DNA of 36,189 nt, taken from the NCBI GenBank assembly GCA_964599845.1, contig CAZRHM010000001.1, positions 1-36,189 of the forward strand. The letters are read 5' to 3'. Position 1 is the first letter of the stretch. Each line of letters opens with the position of its first letter. Origin of the DNA: an uncultured Candidatus Saccharibacteria bacterium (GTDB lineage Bacteria > Patescibacteriota > Dojkabacteria > J137). Positions 2,899 through 31,368 of the stretch are shown here, piece after piece. The translations under genes were made by a program, and so were the position numbers. Below the pieces are notes generated by a model. The model was given only the letters and a program-made list of their open reading frames with translations, was not told where the DNA came from and did no database searches.

Positions 2899-3002
2899 CG
2901 CCCTATGGGTGAAAGTGGTCTTGTTCGCCTGCTTTGGGCAGGACAACAAATCAGCATGGGGCTGATGAAACAGATGAGCGCAAAACGCGCAGGAGGCTCA
3001 AA

Positions 3003-3380
3003 ATGTCAAGCATTATCCAGGTCAGTATCACCGGTTTTGTTGGGAGCGATCCCGTAGTGCGCACCGTCCAGACCAGCAATGGCGACAGACAGGTGGCATC
3101 TTTCTCGGTGGCAGTCAACCGCACCAATGGCGGCGGCCAGAAGCAAACCCTCTGGGTGCGCGTGAACTGCTGGGGACGCTTGGCTGAAGTGGCAAACAGC
3201 TACGTGAAGCGCGGGTCCCATATTCAGTTGACCGGTTCCTGGCTGCGTCCGAGCGCCTGGATCGACCAGAGCGGCAACCCGCAGTCCAGCCTCGATATGG
3301 ATGTTGACCGCCTGATCCTGCTGGATCGCGCCAACGGCGACAGCGACGATACCCCCGAAGACGAAACCATCCCCTTCTGA
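3003..3380 (+). CDS. ssb: Single-stranded DNA-binding protein
   Basis: The sequence has an OB-fold SSB pattern ('ITGFVGSDPV...', 'LWVRVNCWGRLAE', 'GSHIQLTGSW'). It ends in an acidic tail, '...DDTPEDETIPF', resembling the canonical D-D-D-I-P-F. AGGAGG at 2991-2996 lies 6 nt before ATG 3003, so the longer ORF starting at 2934 is unlikely. Confidence 0.85.
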   Translation: MSSIIQVSITGFVGSDPVVRTVQTSNGDRQVASFSVAVNRTNGGGQKQTLWVRVNCWGRLAEVANSYVKRGSHIQLTGSWLRPSAWIDQSGNPQSSLDMDVDRLILLDRANGDSDDTPEDETIPF

Positions 3381-3505: not shown

Positions 3506-3854
3506 CGGCGATACGGGCATCCATGATGCAGTATCGCCGTTGGCGCTGCCTCGCAGCAGCGCCGCGTCCTACGGACGCCGAACCCATCTCAGCGTAAACG
3601 ATTGTCCGTCGGACACGTTTGCGGCTGTCTCAGGTCATACCGGCTCGTGAGAGCGTATGACAGGCTGAGATGGGTCGCCAGCTAAAACGCTGGCTCCTCA
3701 TGCGCCGGAGGGGCTGGTGCGCCACGCCCACGTGACGCACCGCTGACCATGCGACTACATGCTGGTCAGCGCGTCGGCGCGGTATTCCACGCCGACCGAA
3801 CGCACCTGCTGTGCGTTCACGGACGCAGACAACGATAAGCAAGAGGCTGCGTCC
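3506..3854. promoter_or_regulatory. Hairpin-dense GC-rich non-coding block; candidate oriT / single-strand initiation region or structured RNA
   Basis: At least nine different perfect or near-perfect inverted repeats lie within ~350 bp. They are: 3506-3539 (9 bp + inner 5 bp), 3542-3563 (8 bp), 3564-3578 (6 bp), 3582-3593/3664-3675 (12 bp, enclosing further hairpins), 3677-3694 (6 bp), 3742-3770 (8 bp), 3798-3818 (8 bp) and 3821-3854 (8 bp). Confidence 0.3.
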
Positions 3855-4043
3855 AAAACGAAAATATTACTACGTTAAGCGACTACCGCCGCAGTAGAAC
3901 AATATATTCGCCCGGGATAAGCAAACAATGTGACTCGGTAAGCCACCACAATTCACTGTAGTGCATGTTCGTGGTCGCGGTAACTCGATTTTTTGTATAT
4001 AATCGATGAATGTCCAGTCTGCCACTCAAAGCAATGGTGATTT

Positions 4044-4793
4044 TTGATGACAGCGCAACGTTTATTAGTGATTGCATGTACTAAACGAAAGAAAACCGAT
4101 GTGGGTGAGTTGCCAGCATTATACAGATATGACGGCCCCTCTTTTAGAGTACTTAGGAAGTATATTGATCGCAACCCAGAGGATGCAGGACAACTAGATA
4201 TTTTTGTGCTTTCGGCGCACTACAGACTAATCGATGCCAGTACAAAAATTTCGTATTACGACACTCTCATGGACAATGAACGAGCAAATTCGATGAGAGA
4301 TGAGGTCACTGCGTCGTTGACCAAACAAATCACTTATAAGAGCTACAACTCGATATGCATTGCTTTAAGCAAAAAATATAGTCAAGCGGTTGGTGATCTT
4401 TCCCACCTTGCCACACCAGTGTCTAGGATACAGGCACCGCAAGGTGAGTTTTTAGCACTACTTAAAAAATGGCTGTGGCGGGTAAGTTCGAGCGACACAG
4501 ATGAACGTCACACCTTAAACGCAAATCGCAAAAGAGGTATGACTACGCTACGTGGAGTCCCAATTCACTATAGCATCAACGATGTTTGGTCAGTCGTGGA
4601 GAAAAAAATATCAAGTGAACATCCTGGCATGTACAACTATCGCAACTGGTACGTTGAATTCAAAGGCCACCGTCTTTCTCCCAAATGGATTGTGAGTAAT
4701 TTAACCGGTATTCCGGTGGGAAGATTTACTGCTGGCGAGGCACGACGGGTCCTTCACCAGATTGGCATCAGCTGTAGAAAACTAGAAAACTAG
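4044..4793 (+). CDS. Hypothetical protein with a DUF6884/YaaA(DUF328)-like N-terminal pattern and a putative C-terminal DNA-binding module
   Basis: N-terminal motifs are 'LLVIACTKRKK', 'LPALYRYDGPSFRVL' and 'IFVLSAHYRLID...ISYYD'. The C-terminus, 'WYVEFKGHRLSPKWIVSNLTGIPVGRFTAGEARRVLHQIGI', resembles small DNA-binding modules seen on restriction-related proteins. The family call rests on pattern memory only. Confidence 0.45.
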   Translation: MMTAQRLLVIACTKRKKTDVGELPALYRYDGPSFRVLRKYIDRNPEDAGQLDIFVLSAHYRLIDASTKISYYDTLMDNERANSMRDEVTASLTKQITYKSYNSICIALSKKYSQAVGDLSHLATPVSRIQAPQGEFLALLKKWLWRVSSSDTDERHTLNANRKRGMTTLRGVPIHYSINDVWSVVEKKISSEHPGMYNYRNWYVEFKGHRLSPKWIVSNLTGIPVGRFTAGEARRVLHQIGISCRKLEN

Positions 4794-4807
4794 CGAAAGA
4801 TCACAAT

Positions 4808-5977
4808 ATGGATTCAGTAAAGCACGTCACATTAGGTCAAAAATCAATAGTTACGCCCTGTGTAGTTGCCAGTTATCGCATCAATGACTTTCCACGAGCA
4901 GGGTTGTTATGTCATCCATGGCAATTAACCGACACACAAAGCGTGCTGGTAAATGCTTACGATCTCCTGGCAAATCCGAGAACCAAGAAATACACTGAAG
5001 ACATCAGACAGCGAGAACACAAACTCCACGACCATATAGAATTTAGTGGACCGATAATCCTTGATTCAGGGGCATTCAATTTTCTAAAAGATGAGAAAGT
5101 TTCCATTGAAGCAACTGATGTCCTGAACATAGGTATCGAAATGGAAACTGACATGGCAGTCGTGCTAGATCACCCTTTTCCCCCACATCTTGCGAATACC
5201 GAAGAGATGCAGGTGCGGTGGGGCAATACTATGCGTAATACACGCGAAATGTTTGAAGCACTTGGAGATCATACTCGACCTTATCTTATGCCGGTATTGC
5301 ATGGACATGATCATGCCACTCTGCATCGAGGCCTAGATGAACTTATCAATTTCTTGGGGCATGAACCGCATGTTATAGGTATAGGGAGCTTAGCGCCAAT
5401 AGCGCAAAATGGCAGTAAACATACCGCAATTGATGTATTATTAGCAGTTAGAAAATTACTTCCGAATGCACATATTCATTGTTTTTCGATGGGTTCTGCA
5501 TTACTGATGTTATTGGCCTTCTATTGTGGGGCAGATACTGTCGACTCTCAGACCTGGATACTGAGTGCTGCATTCAAACAGGCGCAAATGCCTGGATACT
5601 ACATAACACGGTTATCGTACAAAGAGCATCAGAAGGACAGCGAAAAATATACGGCTGCACGCAACAGGTTTGCTGAACACCTTCTCCATTTGGTAGAGCA
5701 TAATTATTGTGTGCGTGACTGGATAAGCGGCGAGCCTTGGATTATAACTACGCACAGAGACGCATTAAGTTATGTTGACTATCTAGAAGATCAGCAGGAC
5801 TTAAATCGAGTTCACCAGCGTGCGTGCCATAATTTGTACTCGTTTAACTTTGAAGCGAGAAGTTATCGTGAAGAACTTATCAACGGTAACGTAGAAGACT
5901 TTATTCGGAAACGCGTTGCAAAAACAAAATACTCAAAAGTATTTGAATACGCAGTACAGCAAAAACACAAGGGCTGA
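4808..5977 (+). CDS. TGT-fold (queuine/archaeosine tRNA-ribosyltransferase superfamily) enzyme; DpdA-like putative DNA-guanine transglycosylase
   Basis: Motifs appear in the TGT order: 'IILDSGAFNF' (cf. DSGGFQ), 'VIGIGSLAP', 'CFSMGSALL...CGADTVDSQTW' (cf. G-x-D-x-FD-x with the nucleophile Asp) and C-terminal 'VHQRACHNLYSF...FIRKR' (cf. HNL...). No CxCxxC zinc motif is visible. The genomic context includes queC and yhhQ. Confidence 0.75.
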   Translation: MDSVKHVTLGQKSIVTPCVVASYRINDFPRAGLLCHPWQLTDTQSVLVNAYDLLANPRTKKYTEDIRQREHKLHDHIEFSGPIILDSGAFNFLKDEKVSIEATDVLNIGIEMETDMAVVLDHPFPPHLANTEEMQVRWGNTMRNTREMFEALGDHTRPYLMPVLHGHDHATLHRGLDELINFLGHEPHVIGIGSLAPIAQNGSKHTAIDVLLAVRKLLPNAHIHCFSMGSALLMLLAFYCGADTVDSQTWILSAAFKQAQMPGYYITRLSYKEHQKDSEKYTAARNRFAEHLLHLVEHNYCVRDWISGEPWIITTHRDALSYVDYLEDQQDLNRVHQRACHNLYSFNFEARSYREELINGNVEDFIRKRVAKTKYSKVFEYAVQQKHKG

Positions 5978-5980
5978 TGG

Positions 5981-7825
5981 ATGTCAGAGATTTCGAAAAT
6001 CTACACTAACTACGGCGAGTCTCTCCGCTATTCTCAAGTGAAATACACGGACTTATACAGTGAAAGGGCATCGAACGCGGCAGAATTTTATAATCAGTTC
6101 TTCCACAACCTTACAATTCCGTTCTCAGAATTGTTCGAGGATGCAGCCCAGCGTCGACAAATCCATCGACAGATAAATCGCTTCTTTGGCGGTGAGAAAA
6201 TCGACTTTGTAGCGATCGATGGAACAAACTTTAAAGACCCTTTTCAAGACTTTATTGTCTTTTTTGCTTGTGCATATGGATCAAAGGGGCAAGTTAACCT
6301 CACAAACGACCCACCGCAAATCAATTATGAGCGGTGGTCACTTGATAAAGACGTATCTATGGTTACTTACGTACCGATTCCATTCGCCGAATTTGCAGAT
6401 GTTGTTGACCAAGACAGGCTTGAAGACTTTTTGGTATCGGACGGAGATTATATCAACTTTTCCAACATCGATACGCAAATAATGGCGTTAGCGGAAGTAT
6501 TCCTGGCATATAATGTGGCATCATCCTCACTGATTGATGCCCCAAAATTGATCCTGATGGATCGTTCTCCTAGTAGCATGATTGCTGATGTGGCTGTAAA
6601 TCCTGAACAGTTGCCGATGCTAGACTATCCGTTTGACCGTCGGCGACTCTCAGTTGCCGACGCAAGAGTTGTGATGGCCCACCCGTTCAATGAAAATCTG
6701 GGAGTTCCAACTCTGAAACGCTTCCGTCAATACTCAGCACTTATTGCTGAGTTTCATAACCGACGTACTCAACGTATCAATTTACCAGAATACGCTCTGA
6801 AACACGGCCTACGTGTAAATGATTTAACCGATGCACTACGTTTGCTTGAAAGAAGTGAAATCGGCCCTCCATTCGCCAGACGCGAAGGTGACTGGTTAAG
6901 AACGGACATTGATGTTCGCGCTTCATGGGATTACTGTGTCGGACTTTTTGAGAGTATCTGTCGCAGATTGTTCATCGAAAAAGATCAGACTGCTTTAATC
7001 TACGAAACACGTGACGAAGCTGGAGTTCTGCGGATGCGTTGGATGTCACCAGACGACATTCGTTTTCTTACAGCCATCGGAATACGAGTGTTGATTGAAA
7101 AGTGTTGGGACAAAAAAATCTTACTCACGGGAATAATCAAGGATTCAGCCTCGAAGTATTTGACAAGAAACTATCTTGGAACGATGAAGTTGCTTGGCAG
7201 CAAAGGCTATCCAGAACTCAATGATTTACAGATCAAACTGCTACCATGGACTGACCGGATTTTCTTAGAACTATTGCCACTGATTGATGACGAGTTGCAA
7301 GCACCATGGAGTTCTATCGAGTTTGATTCAATGTATATGACGGTACACGCTAGAACGGATGAACACAATCGACCTATCATTAGTGGTGCCCGCAGTGTTT
7401 TTGTGGCACCGGAGCGATTATTTGCACGTTCGCTAGGGCAGTTCTTCTTGAAACGCGACAAATCGACACCCCTCATGGGGCATGTTGTGTTTATTGATCG
7501 ATTGCTATTTCCCGATTGGGATGCAGATGCGCTTAACCAGGTAGAAATACAAAACCGTTTACTCGGGAAAATTCAGCCTTTGTGCTATAAGACACGCGAT
7601 GATGTTAATATTGGTCAAAGGATCAATATGTATCTACTTAGTGTATTAACACGTAATCACTTCCCGGAGGTTATTGGTTATCCTGATCCACTTCACAAAG
7701 CTGACTGGGGTGCAAAATCAGTTGGCGAACGTGCTCGTAAACTGATTGCCTCAAGTACATTTTCATTTCGGTCCCAACCTCTGAGTAGGACTTTTCGGAA
7801 TATTCGAGATTCTTTCCACCGTTAG
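5981..7825 (+). CDS. NurA-like nuclease-domain protein (614 aa)
   Basis: Motif order resembles NurA: 'FVAIDGTNF', 'LILMDRSPSS', 'LTGIIKDSASKYL', 'IGYPDPLHKADWGAKS'. It lies immediately upstream of a HerA-like ATPase, which is the classical NurA-HerA pairing. Confidence 0.55.
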   Translation: MSEISKIYTNYGESLRYSQVKYTDLYSERASNAAEFYNQFFHNLTIPFSELFEDAAQRRQIHRQINRFFGGEKIDFVAIDGTNFKDPFQDFIVFFACAYGSKGQVNLTNDPPQINYERWSLDKDVSMVTYVPIPFAEFADVVDQDRLEDFLVSDGDYINFSNIDTQIMALAEVFLAYNVASSSLIDAPKLILMDRSPSSMIADVAVNPEQLPMLDYPFDRRRLSVADARVVMAHPFNENLGVPTLKRFRQYSALIAEFHNRRTQRINLPEYALKHGLRVNDLTDALRLLERSEIGPPFARREGDWLRTDIDVRASWDYCVGLFESICRRLFIEKDQTALIYETRDEAGVLRMRWMSPDDIRFLTAIGIRVLIEKCWDKKILLTGIIKDSASKYLTRNYLGTMKLLGSKGYPELNDLQIKLLPWTDRIFLELLPLIDDELQAPWSSIEFDSMYMTVHARTDEHNRPIISGARSVFVAPERLFARSLGQFFLKRDKSTPLMGHVVFIDRLLFPDWDADALNQVEIQNRLLGKIQPLCYKTRDDVNIGQRINMYLLSVLTRNHFPEVIGYPDPLHKADWGAKSVGERARKLIASSTFSFRSQPLSRTFRNIRDSFHR

Positions 7826-7833
7826 AGGTTTAC

Positions 7834-9660
7834 ATGTTTCTTCAAGGACTTACGGGCATTCTTATGCGGGTTGAGGAAGATGAAATAACTCGCTATCGTT
7901 TTGAAGTCTGGTTCGATTATACACGCGGGGCCATAAACACTATTGGCGAAGGAACGATGATTGTTGTTCCAAACTTTGCGAGTAGCGACAAAAACGGTTT
8001 CCATTACAGTGTGCTCGAAGTAACTGGACTTTTGCCAATGCATTACGCACTGGGCAGTGATGTGAGTGGCTATCCTGGTTTTGTAGCTGAAGCAGCTCGA
8101 AATGCGGGTTTAGATTGGCTAAGTCAGGAGACAACATCGACCGAAGAAACGACGAAAATTCGTTGTATGGCAATACCTACTAATCTTGAGATTGTTGAAC
8201 CAGACTTAACAATCGAACGTGAGTTGAATCTACCCATGGTGGGACATCCCGTAAACGTGTTAGACACAGAGATGACCGAAAGAGTTGCTAATCTCAATCT
8301 AGACCTGGAGCACGACAGTCTGATTCAAATCGGCAATTTAGTTCGTGACTCAGAGGTTAGAGCGTGGCTCGAAATCGAAGGATTGCTAAAAGTTCATTTT
8401 GGAATATTTGGCTTTACTGGTGCAGGCAAATCCAATCTGTTGAGCACCTTAGTTAGCAAATTACTGTCACAACAAGAAAATCAAGAACAGCCTGTCAAGA
8501 TAGTAATTTTTGACCTGATGGGTGAATATACAGGGCTACTGATTGATCAACTCTATCTTTCGTCCAATTCCTATATTGTTAATCTTGGCGTAGAAACACT
8601 CCCTGAGTCTATTTTAGATTATTATCGTGCTAAGGCAGGCGGAAGTACAAACGGTGGTGAATTACGTACAATGCTTGAAAAGGCTACACTGGATCTCAGT
8701 AAGTCTCTTATCTTGCCCAAAGCACTGAAACAAAGTCAGGACGGGCTCCATTACCCTCTAGCGATTCTCTTGCACCAAAACCGCGTTGTCTTCCTGAGTG
8801 AAAAACATGAAACGGCAGGCAGTGTTATCGCCAATTTCGAATTTTCAGGCAATATGGGCAATTGTGCTACTGAAGTCTATAAGTTTAGACGAGAACTACA
8901 AAAAGAATTTGCTGACTCAGAGATTGATCAGAGTTTGCTCGACCAGCTCGAAAAACGCATCGAAAACTTTAAGAATTACCTGGGTAAAACTATCACACAA
9001 ACCGCAATAAAGAATCTTGACACCCTTTATGGTCAGTTTGAGGGCATTGCTGCACAACCAAGAGCGGAAATCCCTGCAAATGCCCAAATCAGCTTAGGGA
9101 AACTCATCAGCATTCTGAACAATGATGAAAATGCATTGTTGATTGTTCAGTCTGCTGATCCGGATCGTCTTCGTGAGTTTGTCGGCGTGATGTCCAATGT
9201 TGCTTATGATGTACGTCGGCGCGAGGGTCGTATAACTCCCTTAGCATCCTTCATCTTTGACGAAGCTGATGAATACCTCCCACAACAGGCAAATGACAGT
9301 CAGAAACGCAGCAAAGCGGCAATCACTACTTTGGCTCGTCGTGGCAGAAAGTTCGGCTTAGGAATTGGTATAGCAACCCAACGCATCCGTTACTTGGACA
9401 CAAGCATTCTCGCACAACCACACACATACTTCATATCGAAACTTCCAAGGAAGGCTGATCGTGATGCTGTTATGGAGGCTTTTGGCATGTCAGAAGATAT
9501 GTTTAGGCAGACCTTCAAGTTCAGGAAGGGAGACTGGTTACTTGCGAGCTATGATGCCGCAGGTTTAGAGGCGATCCCGATACCGGTACACCTTGAGAAC
9601 GCTGAAGAACGTCTTCTTCGCTTCTTGCGAGAAATTGCAGAGAAAAGAGGTGAGGATTAA
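7834..9660 (+). CDS. HerA/FtsK-type (DUF87) hexameric ATPase
   Basis: Walker A is 'GIFGFTGAGKSNLLS' and Walker B is 'SFIFDEADEYLP'. It also has the HerA-type 'ARRGRKFGLGIGIATQRIRYLDTSILAQ' segment. The true start could be the internal Met in 'MRVEEDE'. Confidence 0.8.
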   Translation: MFLQGLTGILMRVEEDEITRYRFEVWFDYTRGAINTIGEGTMIVVPNFASSDKNGFHYSVLEVTGLLPMHYALGSDVSGYPGFVAEAARNAGLDWLSQETTSTEETTKIRCMAIPTNLEIVEPDLTIERELNLPMVGHPVNVLDTEMTERVANLNLDLEHDSLIQIGNLVRDSEVRAWLEIEGLLKVHFGIFGFTGAGKSNLLSTLVSKLLSQQENQEQPVKIVIFDLMGEYTGLLIDQLYLSSNSYIVNLGVETLPESILDYYRAKAGGSTNGGELRTMLEKATLDLSKSLILPKALKQSQDGLHYPLAILLHQNRVVFLSEKHETAGSVIANFEFSGNMGNCATEVYKFRRELQKEFADSEIDQSLLDQLEKRIENFKNYLGKTITQTAIKNLDTLYGQFEGIAAQPRAEIPANAQISLGKLISILNNDENALLIVQSADPDRLREFVGVMSNVAYDVRRREGRITPLASFIFDEADEYLPQQANDSQKRSKAAITTLARRGRKFGLGIGIATQRIRYLDTSILAQPHTYFISKLPRKADRDAVMEAFGMSEDMFRQTFKFRKGDWLLASYDAAGLEAIPIPVHLENAEERLLRFLREIAEKRGED

Positions 9661-9662
9661 AG

Positions 9663-10115
9663 ATGCTGGTATATGTTGCAGGACCGTTATTTAGTACGCA
9701 TGAAAGACGGTATCTGGAGGAAATTGCTTCTAAATTGGAGGTCAATGGATTTCAGACATTTCTTCCTCACCGTGATGCTGGACTACTAGATGGTGACAAC
9801 AGCATTGATCGCCAAGACTTATTTCAAGCCGACCTCAAAGCACTCAAGCACTGTGAAATAATTGTTGCCCTTCTAACCGGTCCAGATCATGATTCGGGAA
9901 CATGTGCCGAGTTAGGTATTGCTTTCGCTCAGAATAAACTCTGCTTCGGAATCACAGACGATATGCGATGGCTAAACAACATGATCTGGGGTATATGTGA
10001 TCAGGGGAGACGCATTGCAACAAGCCCTGACAAGTTAGTTGCGATGCTTCTAAGCTTCACAAAGACATCTCAGTCAGCAAGTGAAAATGGATTGAACGAT
10101 ACTGCTCGATCATAG
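9663..10115 (+). CDS. Nucleoside 2-deoxyribosyltransferase-like (NDT/Rcl-fold) protein
   Basis: It has 'MLVYVAGPLFS' at the N-terminus and 'IIVALLTGPDHDSGTCAELGIAFAQNK', matching the D-x-G-T-x-x-E-x-G catalytic Glu signature of this family. Confidence 0.7.
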   Translation: MLVYVAGPLFSTHERRYLEEIASKLEVNGFQTFLPHRDAGLLDGDNSIDRQDLFQADLKALKHCEIIVALLTGPDHDSGTCAELGIAFAQNKLCFGITDDMRWLNNMIWGICDQGRRIATSPDKLVAMLLSFTKTSQSASENGLNDTARS

Positions 10116-10762
10116 ACATCAATACCCTCTTGTTGCTTTATGTGTCTAATTACGGTATAGGTGAGGGGTGTTGCAGCAGCTTCATAGACCGATTTAAATA
10201 TCCATTGAGTTAGAATCGCTGAAAGCATGGCACCAGCTGGAGTGGTCCCTACAAATGCTATTGCTATAAATAGCAGAGAGTCCAATCCCTGCCCTACAAT
10301 AGTCGATCCTATCGTTCGTAACCACAGGTAATGCCCTTCAGTAGCAACCTTTAGCCTAGATAAGACAAATGAGTTTGCAAATTCCCCTACCAGAAATGCC
10401 AGAAACGATGCAAAGAGTAGCCGAGGCGTATAGCCAAGAATTGTTTCATAGGCCTCCTGTCCTCCCCAGAAAGATGCGCTCGGTAACGCCTGCCCAACCA
10501 CAATAGCCAGCACGGTTATAAGGTTACATGAAAAAGCCAGCCAGATGATGCGCCTTGCCTGTTTATATCCGTAGACCTCGGTCAGAACATCGCCAACGAT
10601 ATAGCTGATAGGAAATATAACGATTCCTGCTGGGACTATTAGCTCTCCAAACTGCACCAATTTTACAGCTATAATGTTTGCGGTAATTAAGCTCGTGATA
10701 AATAAGCTGACGATGATTACGAACCAGATTGAGTAGCGTTGCTTTTCGACAGTGGTTTTCAA
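10070..10762 (-). CDS. yhhQ: Queuosine-precursor (preQ0/preQ1) transporter, YhhQ/DUF165 family
   Basis: It is a multi-pass membrane protein with 'VIFPISYIVGDVLTEVYGYKQARR', the hallmark of the YhhQ family. Its 3' end overlaps the convergent NDT-like gene by 46 nt. Confidence 0.8.
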   Translation of the reverse strand: MKTTVEKQRYSIWFVIIVSLFITSLITANIIAVKLVQFGELIVPAGIVIFPISYIVGDVLTEVYGYKQARRIIWLAFSCNLITVLAIVVGQALPSASFWGGQEAYETILGYTPRLLFASFLAFLVGEFANSFVLSRLKVATEGHYLWLRTIGSTIVGQGLDSLLFIAIAFVGTTPAGAMLSAILTQWIFKSVYEAAATPLTYTVIRHIKQQEGIDVYDRAVSFNPFSLAD

Positions 10763-10786
10763 GTTTGTTGTCTCCCTTATCCTGGA

Positions 10787-11455
10787 TTACAAATACGGTA
10801 TTGGATCACATAGGCCTAGCTCTTTGAAGGCTGCCAATCGTTCAGCACAGGTAGGGCAGACACCACAAGCTACCTTATCACCCTGGTAACATGACCAAGT
10901 TTGGCTGTAGTCAACATCAAGGTCAAGTCCGACACGCAAAATATCTGCTTTAGAATGCTCTACAAATGGTGCAGAAATCTGCACCGGGTTTTTCCTGTTG
11001 AGCGCATACACTTTATTCAGTTTGTTCAAGAAATCAACTGTCGTGTCCCAATATCCATACATATCCTGACGTTGAGCACCGTAGAAAACAGTATCAACCT
11101 GTAAGGTTTCTGCATATGCCACTGCAATTGACAAAAATAGCATATTTCGGTTTGGTACATATGTGGAAGGTTGTGAATCACCTTGAACAGCATCTATGGT
11201 AGGAATGCTTATGTTGGAGTCAGTCAGAGCCGATCTGCTAAGGACATCCCTCAACGATGCCAAATCAATTATACGATGCCTTGTAATTGCGAGCTGTTTT
11301 GCATGATATTCAGCGCATGATATTTCACGATTATGTTTTTGCCCGTAGTTGAAAGTGATTACACTCGGATGCCTACCCCCTTTCTTGACCAAATAATATA
11401 GTAGTGTGACACTATCCAAACCACCACTAACTATTACAATGCAATCGACATCCAT
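10787..11455 (-). CDS. queC: 7-cyano-7-deazaguanine (preQ0) synthase QueC
   Basis: Motifs are the 'VIVSGGLDSVTLL' PP-loop, 'TFNYGQKH', 'YVPNRNMLFLSIA' and the C-terminal zinc cysteines 'CYQGDKVACGVCPTCAER'. The start was moved to ATG 11455 ('MDVDCIVIV'), because the longer ORF would overlap the upstream nuclease gene. Confidence 0.85.
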   Translation of the reverse strand: MDVDCIVIVSGGLDSVTLLYYLVKKGGRHPSVITFNYGQKHNREISCAEYHAKQLAITRHRIIDLASLRDVLSRSALTDSNISIPTIDAVQGDSQPSTYVPNRNMLFLSIAVAYAETLQVDTVFYGAQRQDMYGYWDTTVDFLNKLNKVYALNRKNPVQISAPFVEHSKADILRVGLDLDVDYSQTWSCYQGDKVACGVCPTCAERLAAFKELGLCDPIPYL

Positions 11456-11487
11456 ACTTTTTTCTAGTCTCTTCGTACTGGTGTAGT

Positions 11488-12483
11488 TTATGGGTACCGC
11501 ATCTTGATCTTTTTTGGTGTAGGGCAATTCCACCGCAGATCACAGATATTGCAGTCCTGATCACTGATTGCGCCTGGTTTTGCAGGAGGAAAGTAATCCT
11601 GCAAGCGAGCCAACTCAATGTCTTCTACCGTTCTAGCAAATGCTTCCATTGCCTCATCAATTTCGGGTGTATTCAGTGGCACTTCCATTATCGCATTCAC
11701 AGGTCTTTGCTGCGGTGGCCTATCTCCATCCAGTTCATTAATGAAGTACAGTATTGCACGCTTCGGACGGACACCATGTTTCCACTCATAAAGCCTCGAA
11801 TACACTTGCATCTGAAAACGATATGTTTCTATATCGCGAGGCTTTAAGTTAAGAGGGTCCACACCTTTGTAGTCCCAAATCTCACAATCAGAATACTGAT
11901 TCGATTCTGTTTCAGGATTTACCAGCAAGTCCACAACCCCTTGAACAATGTGGTCTCCCCTATCAGCCTGTAAGCGATGCTCCGTATCCTGTACACGAGG
12001 ATATAGCTCGGGCCCCTCAAGAGCATTGAAGTATTGTAACACTCGAACTGCTTTTAGCCTTAGATCTGATGTAATTGCCCTAATTCCCCGGCTTTTTAAG
12101 CCATTTTCGACCTCTATGAAGTATCTTACTATATCGCCTGGTGCATCAGGAACCTTGGTGTCCTTGGTTTCTGCTTCTTTAAGCTCTTCAAAGTATTCTT
12201 GAATAACTTCATCGGCGATAGGTATACAGTTATCTGGGAAATTGCCCTTTGTACTTGCATCAATTAAACCCAAATAGTGTGTGTGGCAACGATCCAGTAC
12301 CTGATGAATGATTTGCCCAAAGTAGAGTTGGGTTTGATGTGCAGGCGCATAGTTGTAAACTCGAAACGCACCGTACTGACGTGAGCAGCGGCGAAAAGCA
12401 ACTATATCTGTAGTCAGGCTATAGCGTCGCTTAACTGGATTTTCTGCGCTTTTAGGAACTTGAAAGTTAAACGGCCCGGTCAT
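11488..12483 (-). CDS. PD-(D/E)xK nuclease, Cas4/RecB/AddB-like with a four-Cys (Fe-S) cluster
   Basis: Motifs are 'FRRCSRQY' (first Cys), 'VDLL...CEIWDYKG' (D...ExK), 'QMQVYSRLY' (QxxxY) and C-terminal 'CNICDLRWNC'. The start was set at ATG 12483, 13 nt after the helicase stop. Confidence 0.75.
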   Translation of the reverse strand: MTGPFNFQVPKSAENPVKRRYSLTTDIVAFRRCSRQYGAFRVYNYAPAHQTQLYFGQIIHQVLDRCHTHYLGLIDASTKGNFPDNCIPIADEVIQEYFEELKEAETKDTKVPDAPGDIVRYFIEVENGLKSRGIRAITSDLRLKAVRVLQYFNALEGPELYPRVQDTEHRLQADRGDHIVQGVVDLLVNPETESNQYSDCEIWDYKGVDPLNLKPRDIETYRFQMQVYSRLYEWKHGVRPKRAILYFINELDGDRPPQQRPVNAIMEVPLNTPEIDEAMEAFARTVEDIELARLQDYFPPAKPGAISDQDCNICDLRWNCPTPKKIKMRYP

Positions 12484-12496
12484 GTGAATTATGCCT

Positions 12497-14683
12497 TTAG
12501 ATAAGTGTCGGTCGGTTAGTCGTTCTTCGGAAGTGAGTCGCATCAGGAATTGCGATATTGTTCGTGATCTGTGACGGCGTAGCAACAATCATCAAACCAT
12601 ATTGTGCGCGTGAATAGGCAACGTAGTACAGTCGGATGTCATCTTCTCGTGCTAGTGTTTCAGGCGGTCGAGTTGTGCGGGCATAGATTTCATCTCGGAA
12701 TGGAGTAAAGTCTCGTTCGATAATTTGCGCTGGACCTACTCGTGGATTGCTTCCAATGTTCACCAAAATGACAAACGGAAATTCTAGCCCTTTAGATTGA
12801 TGGATTGTCATCAAGGGTAAATAGCCTTCTGGCACGATCACATCTTCGTCTTCGTCATCATCAATGCCAGCATTCATGAGATAACTGATAAACGTATAAT
12901 AGAAACGCTCTCTGAAAAGCTCATTCAGATCTGTACCATCTTGATTAACGCGCAAAGTATCCAAATTGAGGCTGTGGTAACTCTCAAACAACCTCGTTAC
13001 TTTCGACAAGCGCATATTGCGCTCAGGATTTTGTTGCCAAGTTGGAAAAGGTTCGAGCGATAACAGACGGTAAAGTATCTCCATTATATTGAGTTGTAGG
13101 AAACGATTAGGATTTTCACGGCAACGATCTATAAGACTATTAGTGCTGAGGGTGATATATTCGGTCAAAGAAGCAAGATCGTAATTGTTATTGTTTTGAA
13201 GATCAATTAAAGTCTGAATCCAGCTTTGAACCGTGGCGGCTAAGTCACGAGTACGAATATTCAGAAAAGTAGAGTTAGGATCAATCACCTGGATGAGACT
13301 TGCCAGCAGTGTTTGTACTTCTTCGCTTTCCATAAATGATTTTGATCGTGGGTTATAGAACGGAATTCCTCGCCGATTAAATTCCTCCATAAAGGGGCCA
13401 GCATTACGTGGTGAATCTTTGGTGCTTCGCATCAAAATAACACATTGGCTGAGGTCCTCGATAACATTGTCTCGAAGATATTCAACGAAGTCAGCTAAAA
13501 CGATACATAAGTCTCCTGCTCTATTGGTTTGTAACCAATTGACTGCTGGATAGTTACCTGTAATTGTGGATGCAGCATTAATTGGCTGCTTATTAGGAGC
13601 ACGGACTCCGGCAACTCGCATTTCGGGCGAACTTGCAATGTAAGCATTAAAGAAATCTACGATTTGCTCATGTGAACGATAATTCTTATCTAATTGAATC
13701 ACGTGTGGGGTAACACTGAATTCTGCCTGCATGGCCTGATCGAAGTTTACCATGCAAGCTACTGATCCACCTCGGAAACGATACAGCGCTTGATCATCAT
13801 CACCGACAACAGTAATGTTATGAGGTTTATTCCGAGCCAGCGCGAGATAGATACTTTCTTGTATCGGATTTGTATCTTGATATTCATCAACCAAAATATA
13901 GCGTAATGGTTGATTACGTTCTCCATCACCTTCAATAAATCGTTGGCTTGCGTCACTCTGAATGAATTCCAGGAACCGTTGCTGTAAATGAGCGAAGTCA
14001 CAACGATAGTTATCCCTTAGTGCTTGTTCGTATTGTTGGTAGAAATCCGCCAATGTTGCCCAATGTCCACCAGCAGCACGCATCACATGAAGGTTTACAC
14101 GATCCTCAACGATATGATTGAAGAGAATCATTGCTGCATTTGTTCTGCTCCAGCGACTTGGTGTCCAACCGGAATTACGAGACCACATGGGAATAGCATA
14201 TTCAAATTCTGCCCAGAACGAGTTGTCATCATGCTGCGCTATTTCGGCGTGTCGATATGTAAAAAGACTCTGTTCGACAGATTCAAGCAGACGCACATTT
14301 TGATAATCAGGATAACGATAATCATGCATGATATCGTTGCAAAGACTATGAATAGTGCCAACCCGTAAATCCGCGAGGTCAATTTCACGAAGAGATTGAT
14401 CAGCTTTTTGCAGCAAGACCATGTATGTGGCAAGACGATCTTCAAGATTGAGTGCTGCCTTTTTTGTAAAGGTTGTGACCATTATAGACTCAGGAGGGAT
14501 GCCATCGACACAAATTAGTTTCAACGTGCGAGTTACCAATACTTCCGTCTTACCTGAGCCAGGACCGGCCAAAAGCCAGAGCGGTCCCTCTCCGTAGTTG
14601 ACGGCTGCGAGCTGTTCGTCATTCAGGGGATATCCTCTTGCGGCATCTGTCATCAGACAATTGTGAAACGATATTAAGTCCAT
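12497..14683 (-). CDS. UvrD/Rep/PcrA-family SF1 helicase
   Basis: Motifs are 'LLAGPGSGKTEVLV' (motif I), 'ILVDEYQDTNPIQ' (II), 'VVGDDDQALYRFRGG' (III), 'NYRS', 'MTIHQSKGLEFP' and 'LYYVAYSRAQ'. Confidence 0.85.
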   Translation of the reverse strand: MDLISFHNCLMTDAARGYPLNDEQLAAVNYGEGPLWLLAGPGSGKTEVLVTRTLKLICVDGIPPESIMVTTFTKKAALNLEDRLATYMVLLQKADQSLREIDLADLRVGTIHSLCNDIMHDYRYPDYQNVRLLESVEQSLFTYRHAEIAQHDDNSFWAEFEYAIPMWSRNSGWTPSRWSRTNAAMILFNHIVEDRVNLHVMRAAGGHWATLADFYQQYEQALRDNYRCDFAHLQQRFLEFIQSDASQRFIEGDGERNQPLRYILVDEYQDTNPIQESIYLALARNKPHNITVVGDDDQALYRFRGGSVACMVNFDQAMQAEFSVTPHVIQLDKNYRSHEQIVDFFNAYIASSPEMRVAGVRAPNKQPINAASTITGNYPAVNWLQTNRAGDLCIVLADFVEYLRDNVIEDLSQCVILMRSTKDSPRNAGPFMEEFNRRGIPFYNPRSKSFMESEEVQTLLASLIQVIDPNSTFLNIRTRDLAATVQSWIQTLIDLQNNNNYDLASLTEYITLSTNSLIDRCRENPNRFLQLNIMEILYRLLSLEPFPTWQQNPERNMRLSKVTRLFESYHSLNLDTLRVNQDGTDLNELFRERFYYTFISYLMNAGIDDDEDEDVIVPEGYLPLMTIHQSKGLEFPFVILVNIGSNPRVGPAQIIERDFTPFRDEIYARTTRPPETLAREDDIRLYYVAYSRAQYGLMIVATPSQITNNIAIPDATHFRRTTNRPTLI

Positions 14684-15011
14684 AATGTGAACACCTAGAT
14701 TTAGTTAAAGTGAGAAGCAACATCTGCCTTGTGTAAACTCTATAAATCAACAAACAGGCAGTAACCGTTATCCCAGTTTTTTGGCCTTATTGCTTGAACA
14801 ACTTTCCAAGAAGGATCATAACATAAAACGCTATCCTCATTCATTGAAGGCACCTATATATCTAATCTTGAGAGGTTAGTTTATAAGTCCACTCTATCTG
14901 AGCATCCACAAGTACTCGGATACTCTCGTCCATCACCACGAGTCGGTTTGGATCGTTCTTTTCACGAGACCACACTATATAGATATATTATCCTACAATC
15001 AGAGATTGAAT

Positions 15012-16170: not shown

Positions 16171-16386
16171 ATGACCTACCTGAAACCACAAATCGCATGG
16201 GGCCGCTTTACTTTACTCACCCTGATTCTCGCTGGCACTGCCATCGGGCGTAAGCTGGGCTTTGGCTTTGATGAAGCCCTCTACTTCGCTATGTTGTTTC
16301 TGATCATCAGCGCCTGGGCATTGAACCGCTATCTGCAGCATCAGGCACACGAACCTACTGACGGAATGGCGGAGGATGAACGGTGA
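16171..16386 (+). CDS. Small two-TM membrane protein
   Basis: It has two hydrophobic segments ('FTLLTLILAGTAI', 'ALYFAMLFLIISAWAL'). Its stop overlaps the GTG start of the coupling protein (GTGA). Confidence 0.45.
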   Translation: MTYLKPQIAWGRFTLLTLILAGTAIGRKLGFGFDEALYFAMLFLIISAWALNRYLQHQAHEPTDGMAEDER

Positions 16387-18359
16387 TCTACTGGCTATTC
16401 ACCGATGGTCGCAATCTACTGAGCAGCCTACTCGTCCCGTTGTTGTGCCTGACGTTGCTCATGCCGCTGATGGTGAGCGCGGTGTTCGGCGCGGGCATCC
16501 AGCGTAGCATTGAGGCACAGAGCGTCTCAGGTTGGAAGAATGGGATGAAGCTGCTCACTCATGGCATCGTGCTGCTGGGCATCACCGCGATTTACCTGTC
16601 TCTGGCAGGAGACACCGCCATTGAAACGATGCGTAGCAGGCAATCGACCAACGCCTTCATTCGCACCATCGCGGGCGGTCCCGATAACATAAACCACGTA
16701 CGTTTGTTCGGCTTTGGGATCATGCTGGTGTTCGTCTGGATCGTCGTTTCATTGGGACTGCACAGCGGATTGAAGAACGGTGGCTGGCTGCGTGAGTGGG
16801 TGGATCGCCTGCGGACACCGCAAGTCAGGCGAGGTGCGTTGGGTTCATCGCATTTCTGCACACAACGCGAGTACAAGCGCTTTCGGCGCGAAGACCCGGA
16901 AGGGCTGACGCTGCTCGGCGCGTTCTGGGGGGAGAACAAGCGAAGGCTCGACCTGGGCACCGGGCGCTTCTGTCTCGGCGGTGAGGACATCGCACGCGGT
17001 ATCCTGACGCTTGGTGGCCCCGGTTCCGGTAAGACGCAAGGCATCATCCTGCCCGCCATCGCCGACCGGATGCTGGCAGGACACTCACTCGTCGTCGCCG
17101 ACCCGCAAGGTGAAATCACCGGGCATATCCTCAAGTATGCTGCCGTCACCCGCCATCTGGTCGTCGTTCATGACCCGACCTCGACCATCGGCCCTCGCTA
17201 CAACTTGGCGCAGGGGATCGACAACGTATCCGACGCCCGTGCCATCGCCGATGTGCTGGTGCCCTCGGCGCAGGGGGATAACAGGTTTTGGACCGATAGC
17301 GCAGCCGCACTGTTAGCCGCGTGCCTGATCCGCTTCCCGAACTTGGGTGAAATCTACAATGCCATGAACGACCTGAAGGCACTAGCGATCAAACTTGCCG
17401 AAAAGAAAGATGACGCCGCGCTACTGGCAAACAGCTTCATTGCCTCGGTTGGATCGGACGGCAAGGTGGCGTCCAACGTAGTGGCGACTCTGGCGACAGC
17501 GCTCACGGGCTGGGCATCCACCGAAGTGCGCGACAACACCGCTGCCTCCGACTTTGACGCGGAACTGATCGTTGAACAGCCGACAGTCGTCGTGCTGACC
17601 TGTCCCGGCAGGATGCGGGCGGTGTATGCATCGTATCTTGGCGCAACCTTACGGAAGCTGATGCTCGACCTGGACACCATCGGCGAGCGCAACAAAGGCC
17701 CACTGCCCATGCCCGTCGGCGTGATCCTTGACGAGTTCCCGACATTGGGCAAGCTGGATTCGCTGGTGGCCGATGTGAACCTCGTCCGCAAGCGTCGCAT
17801 CAGCATCATGATCGGCGCACAGACGAAGGGGCAGTTCCACATGATTTATGGCAACGAAGGCACGCAAGCGCTGTTCACCGGTCTAGCGACGCAGGTCATT
17901 TATGGCGGCTGTGATGCCGACACCGCCGATTTCTACAGCAACGCCTCCGGAACGGCGACGCAGGAAGGTTCCGCCGACGACAAATACAGCCGGTCGCGCC
18001 CCCTACTGACCGTCGATGAGGTTATCACCCCCCAGATTGGCAACTGCACAATCTTCGCTCGCTATGTCGAAGCGGGGTTCGCCACACAGGTGGTGCTGAA
18101 CGCGCGGCTAACACGCTTCTACGAACGTGAGGACTGGAAGCGGCGGCTGAAATCTGGTGAAAGTGTTGAGCCGTTACTGCTGGAACGCGGTATCGCGCTC
18201 GAATTACCGCCGCCCGAACCACGCGACAAACTGCGGGAAGCGGCGGAATCCGCGATGGACAAAGTAACCGAGAAAGCAGGCGGGGCGCAGTTCACATCGG
18301 TGGCCGTCATGCGCCAAAACTACCAGCAGCGCAAACAGCAGATGGAGGTAGAGGCATGA
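16383..18359 (+). CDS. Type IV secretion coupling protein (VirD4/TraG/TraD family)
   Basis: It has N-terminal TM segments, Walker A 'LTLGGPGSGKTQGIILP' and Walker B 'VGVILDEFPTLGKL'. The size and gene context are typical of a T4CP. Confidence 0.85.
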   Translation: MIYWLFTDGRNLLSSLLVPLLCLTLLMPLMVSAVFGAGIQRSIEAQSVSGWKNGMKLLTHGIVLLGITAIYLSLAGDTAIETMRSRQSTNAFIRTIAGGPDNINHVRLFGFGIMLVFVWIVVSLGLHSGLKNGGWLREWVDRLRTPQVRRGALGSSHFCTQREYKRFRREDPEGLTLLGAFWGENKRRLDLGTGRFCLGGEDIARGILTLGGPGSGKTQGIILPAIADRMLAGHSLVVADPQGEITGHILKYAAVTRHLVVVHDPTSTIGPRYNLAQGIDNVSDARAIADVLVPSAQGDNRFWTDSAAALLAACLIRFPNLGEIYNAMNDLKALAIKLAEKKDDAALLANSFIASVGSDGKVASNVVATLATALTGWASTEVRDNTAASDFDAELIVEQPTVVVLTCPGRMRAVYASYLGATLRKLMLDLDTIGERNKGPLPMPVGVILDEFPTLGKLDSLVADVNLVRKRRISIMIGAQTKGQFHMIYGNEGTQALFTGLATQVIYGGCDADTADFYSNASGTATQEGSADDKYSRSRPLLTVDEVITPQIGNCTIFARYVEAGFATQVVLNARLTRFYEREDWKRRLKSGESVEPLLLERGIALELPPPEPRDKLREAAESAMDKVTEKAGGAQFTSVAVMRQNYQQRKQQMEVEA

Positions 18360-26071: not shown

Positions 26072-26359
26072 GTAACGTTCCTAAATTACTCTTTGTGGCA
26101 TCGCTTGAAGAGCAGTTTTCAAATTATACCGAATGCTGCCACTGCTACGGTTTTCCCATAATTTATGTTACCGTCACGCTGATGTTCAAAATGGTTTAGG
26201 CTTACTATTTCAGACAATACAGTTGAAGGAAACTTTGAACAAACACAATGCATACCTTGCGAAAATCATCAGGCTACTTTACAACTATATCAGAGATCGC
26301 ATGGATGTACTTGCCTTCTATTCATCAACCAGTGTGGAGTTTTGACATCAGGGGCCTTT

Positions 26360-27256
26360 ATGCTCCACGTCTTTAAACTAGACAAAGCAAATGGGTTCGG
26401 AGACATCGAGGAGTTCTATCGAGATTTCACCCCAGTTCTCAGAGATGATTTGTACCGATCAGCAGTTTTCGACTTGCAAAACATTGAATTCCTAACCCTG
26501 GAAGCGTTGCTAGCCTTGATCTGTGCGAGCAAGTTATGGCGTGAAACAAAAGATGAACCAGTGGAATGGCAAACCAGCGATAAGGTTGCACAGTATCTCG
26601 AACGCGCTGATATACTTCATGTTCTAGCCGATGATATTCTTATCGCTGAACTCCCAGATACTCGATGGGATCGAGGTTCGAGTCTTTCATTAATGGAACT
26701 CCGCGAACTCGCGCCTTCTCCAGAGCAAAACAGTTACGATGTCGCTAGTGTCTTATCCGCAACATCTAAGCTACTGCTGGGGCGTGTCAGTACAAAGCAA
26801 CTTGGTAGTACCAGCACGCTAATGAGTGAGATTGCTCAAAATGTAACGCATAGCACATCTACTGGGTATGCGCTTATACAGTCCTATCAAATCGGAAAGA
26901 AGCATCGGGTTCACATTGGGGTGATTGATACTGGAATTGGGATAAAGGAATCACTATCGCCCAAGTATCCCAATCTGCCTCGTCCTTCTGATTACATTCG
27001 TCTTTCGTTGAAATCAGGTGTTACTTCTAAATTAGAGAGCGATGGCTTGGGATTGTATCAGGTAGAGAACATTGTCAGCAAAGATCGTGGTGCGCTGACC
27101 ATACGTTCTGGAACCGCAATGATCCAGTTCTGTAAGGATAGAATGTATCAGTGGGATGGGCTTGAAAACATACAAGGGACACAAGTCTATATAACCATGT
27201 GGGGACAGTATGAGAGCAAGCTCTGGAACTACCTCTTGCAATCTCCTGACAAATAG
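26360..27256 (+). CDS. GHKL-superfamily (histidine-kinase-like) ATPase, SpoIIAB/RsbW-like, with an N-terminal STAS-like region
   Basis: It has N-box 'SEIAQNVTHS', G1 'IGVIDTGIGIKE' and G2 'SDGLGLYQVENIV'. The N-terminal 'VFDLQNIEFLTLEALLALI' looks STAS-like. An alternative TTG start lies at 26342. Confidence 0.65.
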   Translation: MLHVFKLDKANGFGDIEEFYRDFTPVLRDDLYRSAVFDLQNIEFLTLEALLALICASKLWRETKDEPVEWQTSDKVAQYLERADILHVLADDILIAELPDTRWDRGSSLSLMELRELAPSPEQNSYDVASVLSATSKLLLGRVSTKQLGSTSTLMSEIAQNVTHSTSTGYALIQSYQIGKKHRVHIGVIDTGIGIKESLSPKYPNLPRPSDYIRLSLKSGVTSKLESDGLGLYQVENIVSKDRGALTIRSGTAMIQFCKDRMYQWDGLENIQGTQVYITMWGQYESKLWNYLLQSPDK

Positions 27257-27295
27257 CGTATACTACCCATAAGCAAAATCTGCTTAGAAGGCTAA

Positions 27296-27889: not shown

Positions 27890-27928
27890 TTTTTTCTCAA
27901 TGAGTTAAGCAGTTTTCGCTGAGGGCAT

Positions 27929-31366: not shown

Positions 31367-31368
31367 AC

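Follow-up and report, generated by a model that had tools for sequence, protein, structure and literature searches.

A low-GC island joining a zinc-less guanine transglycosylase and a DpdC-like protein to a NurA-HerA pair: a candidate Dpd-like DNA modification-restriction system

The window analysed here, a 36,189-nt stretch of contig CAZRHM010000001.1 from an uncultured Candidatus Saccharibacteria bacterium, contains a nine-gene island of low GC content (~3,785–14,972; about 43 % GC against 56-58 % for the backbone in the composition profile), which probably encodes an anti-phage defence, predicted to be based on DNA modification. Its left half consists of five closely spaced plus-strand genes, separated by gaps of 14, 3, 8 and 2 nt; an earlier sequence-only reading had interpreted them as one operon, and the operon, the coordinates and the gaps were all confirmed. 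These five genes are nevertheless only half of the unit for which that reading took them, as it missed the minus-strand operon of overlapping genes for UvrD, a PD-(D/E)XK nuclease, QueC and YhhQ that forms the right half. The features are the following (lengths in amino acids, aa):

3785..14972, no strand: low-GC island, whole nine-gene system (GC profile, Logan contig and flanking genes)
4044..4793, plus strand: gene 1, DUF6884/DpdC-like protein, 249 aa (PF21818, YaaA, and PADLOC PDC-M57A and DpdC matches)
4808..5977, plus strand: gene 2, zinc-less ArcTGT-like guanine transglycosylase (TGT), 389 aa (PF01702, profile against the PDB, AlphaFold2 and Foldseek)
5981..7825, plus strand: gene 3, long NurA-like nuclease, 614 aa (PF09376 matches of relatives, AlphaFold2 and Foldseek)
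7834..9660, plus strand: gene 4, HerA/FtsK-type ATPase, 608 aa (PF01935, PADLOC HerA)
9663..10115, plus strand: nucleoside 2-deoxyribosyltransferase (NDT)/N-hydrolase-like protein, 150 aa (PF05014)
10070..10762, minus strand: YhhQ/Vut_1 queuosine-precursor (preQ0/preQ1) transporter (PF02592, E 5.5e-52)
10787..11533, minus strand: QueC, 7-cyano-7-deazaguanine (preQ0) synthase, 248 aa (PF06508, E 1.3e-62)
11488..12588, minus strand: PD-(D/E)XK nuclease (PF12705, E 1.4e-14)
12497..14683, minus strand: UvrD/PcrA-family SF1 helicase, 728 aa (PF00580, E 3.4e-53; PF13361, E 1.3e-24)

The family calls of the sequence-only reading (DUF6884, TGT, HerA and NDT) are all borne out by Pfam, that of HerA by PADLOC as well, and every motif that it quoted lies at the expected position. 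In the product of gene 2 these are ILDSGAFNF (residues 83-91), GIGSLAP (191-197), GADTVDSQTW (241-250) and HNLYSF (341-346), within a TGT domain (PF01702, E 1.5e-18) covering residues 39-373. The TGT fold that had been proposed for this protein is also found in its AlphaFold2 model (pLDDT 86.8), for which Foldseek returned ArcTGT as the nearest structure (PDB 1iq8, TM-score 0.72), followed by bacterial and eukaryotic TGTs. A profile of 25 TGT relatives likewise retrieved 1iq8 from the PDB (E 6e-13), and neither a DpdA nor a Cap10 chain was among the six PDB profile matches at E <= 10. Asp86, Asp121 and Asp246 are invariant in the 25 relatives and align with Asp95, Asp130 and Asp249 of ArcTGT. 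As stated in the sequence-only reading, the CxCxxC motif is missing from gene 2, and it is found in none of the 25 relatives; His341, which aligns with the zinc ligand His307 of ArcTGT, is the only zinc-site residue kept. The protein also lacks the PUA and C-terminal domains (ArcTGT, of about 580 aa, has C1-C3/PUA), and only its catalytic domain aligns to 1iq8. The N-terminal three-stranded sheet is kept in the model (strands 5-9, 12-16 and 18-23, pLDDT 86-94).

All the equivalog models scored below their cut-offs with this protein: 72.8 of 350 bits for ArcTGT (TIGR00432), 22.8 of 307 for bacterial Tgt and 21.6 of 200 for DpdA (NF041059, E 8e-5). The PADLOC DpdA model was not reached (E 1.7e-4), and the PADLOC Cap10-type 'TGT' model matched partially (E 4e-7, residues 219-284). 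By sequence and fold, gene 2 is thus nearest to ArcTGT and is not a member of the DpdA family. The name 'DpdA-like', under which the enzyme had been introduced, is accordingly lost on these two counts, and would be kept for function only, as its gene context suggests.

Gene 1, whose start is likelier the ATG at 4047 than the codon at 4044, matches Pfam DUF6884 (PF21818, E 1.7e-10, 41.6 bits for a cut-off of 30) and YaaA (PF03883, E 0.002), and no NCBIfam model; in PADLOC it matches PDC-M57A (E 7e-11) and, weakly, DpdC (E 0.005). The motifs CxxxK (C12TKRK16) and LSA (56-58) are present, and Cys12, Lys16, Tyr29, Ser57, Tyr72, Tyr112 and Gly134 are invariant across 37 DUF6884 relatives. When the 37 DUF6884 partners from the collected loci were compared with PADLOC, all matched PDC-M57A and 20 matched DpdC (best model, best E 1e-5), the only other families matched being five DpdC models. 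DUF6884 is given as the domain of DpdC in a published survey (PMC11888242), DpdC has been listed as DUF328/YaaA (PMC12839542), and Pfam treats the DUF6884 and YaaA families as distant relatives (PMC11701544). Because of the survey assignment and of the DpdC-only matches of its relatives, gene 1 is, as judged from family models, a putative distant DpdC homologue rather than an established DpdC orthologue. Sequence searches with gene 1 alone or with the family profile retrieved no solved structure for DUF6884. The protein also has a C-terminal extension of ~105 aa (residues 143-249, window 4470-4793) that matches no family; it is common to the 249-254-aa forms of two collected loci (L001 and L121) and missing from the ~150-aa DUF6884 forms.

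The 614-aa product of gene 3 contains the motifs VAIDGT (77-82), LILMDRS (190-196), GIIKDSASKYL (384-394) and GYPDPLHKADWGAK (566-579). It has no direct family match in Pfam, NCBIfam, PADLOC or the PDB, whether searched as a single sequence or as a profile. The claim that it is NurA-like is nevertheless upheld, as 29 of 33 relatives match Pfam NurA (PF09376, best E 7e-7), and all of the top ten Foldseek matches of its AlphaFold2 model (pLDDT 84.3, pTM 0.87) in the PDB are NurA (probability 1.0, E 2e-9 to 6e-6), the best one being NurA in the T. kodakarensis HerA-NurA-dsDNA complex. Seven residues invariant across the 33 relatives (Asp80, Glu148, Glu172, Asp194, Asp388, Asp569 and His572) are candidate catalytic residues. 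This long NurA-like family is small, with 359 representatives (50 % identity, E <= 1e-3) among 1.84 billion clusters. The adjoining HerA is recognised by Pfam (PF01935, E 7e-18, 66 bits for a cut-off of 23.2) and by the PADLOC model 'HerA, type III coevolved' (E 1e-94, residues 18-591), and possesses a Walker A motif GFTGAGKS (193-200) and a Walker B motif FIFDEADE (473-480).

The remaining genes of the island would supply precursor functions and a further helicase and nuclease. The NDT-like protein (PF05014, E 3.7e-21, 75.9 bits for a cut-off of 28.8) carries the nucleophile motif DSGTCAELG (77-85, Glu83), and its gene overlaps that of YhhQ by 46 nt at their 3' ends. YhhQ and QueC both pass their NCBIfam cut-offs (TIGR00697, 120.2 bits against 50.95; TIGR00364, 192.5 bits against 150.3). 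The PD-(D/E)XK protein has a Cas4/AddB-like cysteine cluster (Cys68, Cys346, Cys349 and Cys355), and UvrD a Walker A motif GPGSGKT at 40-46.

Conservation of this gene set was followed in two collections of loci. The TGT-seeded set takes one genome per species and comprises 36 loci (from Poribacteria, Latescibacterota, Chloroflexota, Acidobacteriota, Planctomycetota and Bacillota), in which gene content was called with iterated local profiles; the NurA-seeded set comprises 84 loci, 80 from metagenomes and 4 from exact look-ups. The NurA-like gene adjoins HerA in 82 of these 84 loci. Among the 27 NurA-seeded loci whose flanks reach 3 kb or more upstream and 5.5 kb or more downstream, HerA is present in all 27, TGT or DUF6884 in 21 and both in 18, so that the gene combination of the window is indeed conserved elsewhere, as the sequence-only reading proposed that a neighbourhood search might show. 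The window's exact gene order was found again in two loci (L046 and L062); elsewhere the same genes are permuted, as in Thermodesulfovibrio and the archaeon Nitrosotenuis (DUF6884-NurA-HerA-TGT) or in Fimbriimonadales (NurA-HerA-TGT-DUF6884), and in L076 and L087 Pfam confirms proteins of ~590 aa as fusions of DUF6884 with TGT. The linkage of this cassette is real, and extends across many bacterial phyla and one archaeon.

Seen from the TGT, the picture is more varied. DUF6884 accompanies it in 32 of the 36 TGT-seeded loci, a BrxD/ORC-like AAA+ ATPase in 29, and a PIN-like protein together with a 301-aa protein in 27, typically in the order DUF6884-(small open reading frame)-PIN-301-AAA+-TGT; the NurA-like gene is present in 4 and HerA in 3. 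The expectation that this TGT subclade would recurrently sit beside NurA-HerA is thus met in part, since the linkage with NurA-HerA does recur, whereas the closest TGT relatives mostly pair with the PIN-like/AAA+ module. The two arrangements are not exclusive, the AAA+ module and NurA-HerA standing together in one operon in L001, L006, L041 and L042. DUF6884-TGT is also attached to a 1,804-aa DEAD-MZB-PLD protein (L028), to SNF2 and MmeI-like proteins (L031 and L032) and to DEAD helicases (L128). Variation occurs on the TGT side as well: the TGTs of L037 and L127 are only ~22 % identical to that of the window, although their NurA-like partners are 52-55 % identical to its own, and therefore one NurA-HerA lineage has been coupled to at least two TGT clades. 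Of these, the L037 enzyme carries CxCxxC and aligns its nucleophile Asp with that of the window TGT; the motif occurs in 16 of 89 TGT open reading frames partnered with the same NurA-HerA family (including L037, L047 and L076). Such swapping of ATPases and nucleases around DUF6884-TGT is the pattern that would be expected if a modification module could exchange its restriction arm, and it is also known from the modification modules of other systems resembling restriction-modification.

The UvrD/PD-(D/E)XK pair also recurs, lying directly downstream of HerA in seven loci (L047, L075, L081, L084, L085, L087 and L088), one of which is a six-gene operon of the order DUF6884-NurA-HerA-UvrD-PD-(D/E)XK-TGT (L047). 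The NDT-like gene behaves differently. It had been read as a partner of NurA-HerA, yet it was found in none of the 120 loci seeded on TGT or the NurA-like protein, and homologues ~60 % identical to it are arranged tail to tail with precursor genes, as NDT> <YhhQ-QueC in L121-L123 and L125 and as NDT> <YhhQ on a short contig (L124). This module stands beside DUF6884-TGT without NurA-HerA in L121 and L122, beside an ArcTGT-like protein and a 1,388-aa DEAD helicase in L125, and alone in L123. NDT, YhhQ and QueC are a separately conserved, convergent precursor module. A YhhQ, QueC, QueD/PTPS or Q_salvage gene adjoins many further loci; in L104, Q_salvage (6940-7941; PF10343, the Qng1-like queuosine glycosylase family) is directly upstream of NurA-HerA.

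No match to the TGT or NurA profiles was found on IMG/VR viral contigs, and none to the NurA-like protein in a tblastn search of PLSDB plasmids; because of this absence, the cassette does not look like a phage self-protection module.

Of the known systems, Dpd (dpdA-K, Salmonella Montevideo and others) resembles the island in its parts: both combine a TGT-family enzyme with a DUF6884/YaaA-family DpdC-like protein (PMC10164549, PMC11888242), preQ0 supply genes (QueC and YhhQ here, QueD in relatives), helicase and nuclease genes, and a genomic-island location. They differ in that the island lacks DpdD-K (PADLOC, nine genes) and the ParB-like ATPase DpdB, has NurA-HerA and UvrD/PD-(D/E)XK as its motors and nucleases, and adds the NDT-like gene. 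The sequence-only reading had described the operon as having other genes 'instead of DpdB/DpdC'. This is correct for DpdB, as no ParB- or DndB-like gene was found among the nine island genes, and incorrect for DpdC, a distant homologue of which gene 1 appears to be from family models. With the bacterial DpdA enzyme itself, gene 2 shares the TGT fold (TM-score ~0.7) and the three invariant active-site Asp; S. Montevideo DpdA has a TGT (beta/alpha)8 fold and Asp95/Asp130/Asp256. Four defining features nevertheless separate the two: gene 2 lacks the structural zinc site CXCX2CX22H conserved in the DpdA family (PMC10164549), stays below the DpdA score, keeps, as modelled, the N-terminal sheet and has no DpdB neighbour.

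The adjoining HerA ATPase and NurA-fold nuclease recall the HerA-NurA end-resection complex (PDB 9x1m, 2ygk and 3taz), from which they depart in that the NurA-like protein is ~200 aa longer, reaches TM-scores of only 0.3-0.5 and has no direct Pfam NurA match, and in that the island links them to 7-deazaguanine genes and has no Mre11/Rad50. BREX-related capture (BRC), a predicted defence system described in 2026, likewise joins a HerA/FtsK translocase to a homologue of TGT which, in the absence of DpdB, is proposed to place 7-deazaguanine marks on DNA; it comprises, besides these two, GNAT, PglZ, DUF6079 (BrxC-like), a STAND NTPase and DUF4007 (PMC12839542). However, BRC lacks both NurA and a homologue of DpdC, and its HerA resembles DndH, whereas the island lacks PglZ, DUF6079, the STAND NTPase and DUF4007. 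The phage and viral DpdA1-4 modules also combine a TGT-family enzyme with QueC or other preQ0 genes and place 7-deazaguanines in DNA (PMC10516641), but the present family, not found on IMG/VR contigs, is chromosomal or borne on integrative conjugative elements (ICEs), has DUF6884 as its partner and usually a nuclease/ATPase module beside it. Finally, QueC- and TGT-family proteins serve defence in QatABCD and in type IV CBASS, in which a CD-NTase whose N-terminus is Gly-rich is joined by Cap9, a short QueC-like protein, and by Cap10, a TGT-like protein that also lacks the zinc site; the island, in contrast, has no CD-NTase or Qat genes, and possesses a canonical QueC together with YhhQ and a DpdC-like partner of a DNA-binding family. 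The island would work like Dpd, yet it is not Dpd, BRC, type IV CBASS or Qat. In the searchable literature, which covers few subscription journals so that an earlier mention is possible, no paper was found that links NurA with 7-deazaguanine or describes TGT, DUF6884, NurA and HerA together. The architecture, which the sequence-only reading did not recognise as described, is accordingly undescribed there, the only HerA-TGT system on record (BRC) being a different gene set.

The explanation that we favour, with moderate confidence, is that the island is a Dpd-like 7-deazaguanine DNA modification-restriction system made of four modules. QueC would make preQ0, and YhhQ would import preQ0 or preQ1, while the NDT-like protein, acting as an N-glycosidase, would probably take 7-deazaguanine bases off (deoxy)nucleosides or nucleotides, by release or by transfer, and so provide a salvage route. 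The TGT would then swap guanine in host DNA for preQ0, with Asp246 as the nucleophile and Asp86 as the acid/base, after which the DpdC-like DUF6884 protein would process the inserted base, most simply by hydration of the nitrile to dADG, a step in which the invariant Cys12 may take part. Two motor-nuclease pairs would form the restriction arm: a HerA hexamer with the NurA-like nuclease, threading and degrading DNA, and the UvrD helicase with the Cas4-like PD-(D/E)XK nuclease. Incoming unmodified DNA would be degraded and modified self DNA spared. The data show the protein identities, the conservation of catalytic residues and of gene linkage, the fusions and the swapping of modules; the mechanism itself is proposed on the precedent of Dpd, in which DpdA/DpdB insert preQ0 into DNA and DpdC turns preQ0 into ADG (PMC10164549), and on standard knowledge of QueC, YhhQ, NDT enzymes and HerA-NurA. 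A defence-island context supports it, as the genes are inserted, with their low GC content, into an ICE-like backbone and have as neighbour a cluster with a type III-like methyltransferase and a helicase.

Several points weigh against this explanation. That the TGT acts on DNA is drawn from gene context only. The enzyme lacks the zinc site conserved in DpdA and in tRNA TGTs, as does its protein-directed homologue Cap10 (10.1101/2025.04.06.647259), and, as modelled, it keeps an N-terminal β-sheet that is absent in DpdA (PMC10164549). The modules are separable, since L121 and L122 have DUF6884-TGT without any detected ATPase, and NurA-HerA occurs with neither TGT nor DUF6884 nearby in L063, L066, L068, L070, L072, L113 and L129. 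The PADLOC label of this HerA clade, moreover, is one of co-evolution with type III CRISPR. No folE, queD or queE was found in the island, and some weak TGT calls in divergent loci depend on iterated local profiles.

The main alternative is a different division of labour, which would make the system one of modification only: HerA, assisted by NurA in a structural or nicking role, would replace DpdB in opening or threading the duplex for the TGT, NurA-HerA would be no restriction effector, and restriction would come from UvrD/PD-(D/E)XK or not exist at all, the mark shielding the ICE or its host from other nucleases. Insertion by DpdA needs ATP hydrolysis by DpdB (PMC10164549), for which the island has no ParB-like candidate, and nearly every DUF6884-TGT locus adjoins an NTPase (HerA, BrxD-like AAA+, or a DEAD, SNF2 or UvrD helicase). 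The four operons holding both the AAA+ module and NurA-HerA, as well as the ICE-like backbone, also fit such a reading. It is nonetheless unlikely in our view, as all candidate catalytic residues of NurA are invariant in the 33 relatives, which argues for an active nuclease, as L121 and L122 possess DUF6884-TGT and the precursor module with no recognisable NTPase, and as NurA-HerA is found also without TGT. The sequence-only reading had offered HerA as a DpdB substitute and NurA-HerA as a restriction arm as its two alternatives; present data do not separate them, and the former is compatible with the favoured modification-restriction system. Indeed, the two could be combined in a single machine made of a dedicated, ancient NurA-HerA lineage, the TGT and the DpdC-like protein, a possibility that we regard as doubtful: a hexameric ring translocase would thread the duplex, offer its guanines for ATP-coupled exchange in place of DpdB, and switch to degradation by NurA on DNA without 7-deazaguanine. 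If so, the modified base would signal 'self' to a processive nuclease much as Chi does, in contrast to the site mark that a classical restriction enzyme reads.

The remaining alternatives change the substrate or deny the system altogether. TGT and DUF6884 might act in a type IV-like manner, reading or erasing the 7-deazaguanines of phage DNA and leaving abasic sites or covalent adducts for degradation by NurA-HerA and UvrD/PD-(D/E)XK. Specific defence against phages modified with 7-deazaguanine is provided by many glycosylases (10.1101/2025.10.29.685425), YfjM, of the DUF6884 family, is a reported interactor of abasic or RNA-base lesions (PMC11701544), and a Qng1-like Q_salvage gene precedes NurA-HerA in L104; but the recurrent genes for preQ0 synthesis and import (QueC, YhhQ and QueD) fit writing rather than erasing, and the TGT keeps the full catalytic set for base exchange, making this improbable. 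More improbable still is that a 7-deazaguanine is put on a protein such as NurA or HerA so as to control effector activation, as by Cap9/Cap10 or QatBC. Loss of the zinc site, shared with Cap10 (10.1101/2025.04.06.647259), and the partial match to the PADLOC Cap10-type model (E 4e-7) point that way. Zinc-site loss was however down-weighted as a sign of a protein substrate, because TGT clades bearing CxCxxC share the same NurA-HerA family (16 of 89) and the L037 enzyme aligns the nucleophile Asp. Further, the 248-aa QueC is bona fide (TIGR00364 passed), only sporadic, and comes with the free-base transporter YhhQ; the island has no CD-NTase and no QatA/B/D; the N-terminal strands are kept in the model of gene 2; and the constant partner is of the DpdC/YaaA family, a DNA-binding fold (PMC11701544). 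As for a chance assembly, HerA-NurA is classically a DNA end-resection machine, and TGT, QueC and YhhQ are classically tRNA-queuosine genes, so that a housekeeping tRNA-TGT paralogue and queuosine salvage genes might simply have come to lie beside a pair serving double-strand-break repair. This we hold to be very improbable indeed, given co-occurrence in permuted order across bacterial phyla and one archaeon, the DUF6884-TGT fusions, the foreign GC content and mobile context, and a TGT that stays below the cut-off of either tRNA-TGT equivalog model (72.8 against 350 and 22.8 against 307 bits).

To our knowledge, Dpd is the only cellular 7-deazaguanine DNA modification-restriction system characterised so far, and, apart from their need for DpdB, we know of little on the way in which DpdA-type enzymes gain access to duplex DNA. 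The island and its relatives reveal a second, ArcTGT-like and zinc-less TGT lineage, recruited with a DpdC-like protein, the pair having been plugged into at least five different motor or nuclease modules. If the favoured modification-restriction system is real, 7-deazaguanine DNA marks would extend to the poorly studied Poribacteria, Latescibacterota, Chloroflexota, Armatimonadota and Nitrososphaerota, and the exchange of modules would amount to a natural experiment showing which ATPases are able to power base exchange. Such a system would also provide the first function for the distinct long NurA family and a function for the PADLOC candidate defence gene PDC-M57A, and suggest a self-contained salvage loop (NDT-like, YhhQ and QueC) for the modified base.

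The island appears to be horizontally acquired. Its left flank holds an SSB gene (2934-3380) and its right flank a type IV secretion coupling protein (16383-18359), and because of these two genes the backbone looks like an ICE. An independent Logan assembly (run SRR29457795) contains a separate contig of 11,188 bp that is exactly window 3,785-14,972, so that both transitions in GC content (3785 and 14972) coincide with its break points; either the island was inserted recently, or sequences differing in coverage or composition have been joined in the 36-kb contig. A repeat search at the borders yielded only short, chance-level matches for flanking direct or inverted repeats, and no tRNA gene, Rfam family or integrase was found at the island as a marker of integration. 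The promoter and terminator scan was uninformative, with promoter-like sites fewer than in shuffled sequence. Between the SSB gene and the left border, in the high-GC flank, a long imperfect inverted repeat (3582-3678, plus strand) folds into a multi-branched hairpin of -52.5 kcal/mol (z = -4.2, with 0 of 200 shuffles as stable) that has no Rfam match.

Further downstream in the window, a second low-GC island opens with three minus-strand genes (18686-26071). Their products are a ResIII helicase of 904 aa that ends in a TnsA-like endonuclease, a type III-like N6/N4 DNA methyltransferase (PADLOC MTase_III, E 6e-61) and a fusion protein of UvrD and PD-(D/E)XK, 967 aa long; this set looks like a separate defence cluster of the restriction-modification kind. 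It is followed on the plus strand (26342-33801) by four co-directional genes, for a HATPase_c-like protein (304 aa), a DUF4325/STAS-like protein (197 aa) and proteins of 1,145 and 810 aa, the last two having no Pfam match and only a marginal one in PADLOC (DdmD, E 5e-4). These four may form an uncharacterised defence operon.

Some of the collected loci contain additional associations. The PIN-like/301-aa/AAA+ module (e.g. L001 2154-5293) is dominant in Poribacteria and Latescibacterota, and no description of it was found; its PIN-like member matches PIN_4 in L004 (E 5e-5), and the 301-aa protein has no family. In L072, a NurA-HerA pair standing alone is followed ~1.5 kb downstream by a CRISPR-like array (11557-11806; 3.5 copies of a ~36-nt repeat, period 71), in agreement with the 'type III coevolved' label of this HerA clade. 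DarG-DarT, a DNA ADP-ribosylation toxin-antitoxin pair, is directly downstream of the DUF6884...TGT-NurA-HerA operon of L001 (10156-12005) and supports a defence-island setting there. In L117 (11737-16614), and also in L114, L115 and L119, NurA-HerA is followed by an 851-aa SIR2-ORC/Cdc6-like protein, a 345-aa protein and a 432-aa protein with a DUF6884 C-terminus. The N-terminus of the latter may be a very divergent TGT-like domain (E 1e-7 to 1e-11, with iterated local profiles only) and, if this domain is real, the 432-aa protein would be a TGT/DUF6884 fusion in reverse order.

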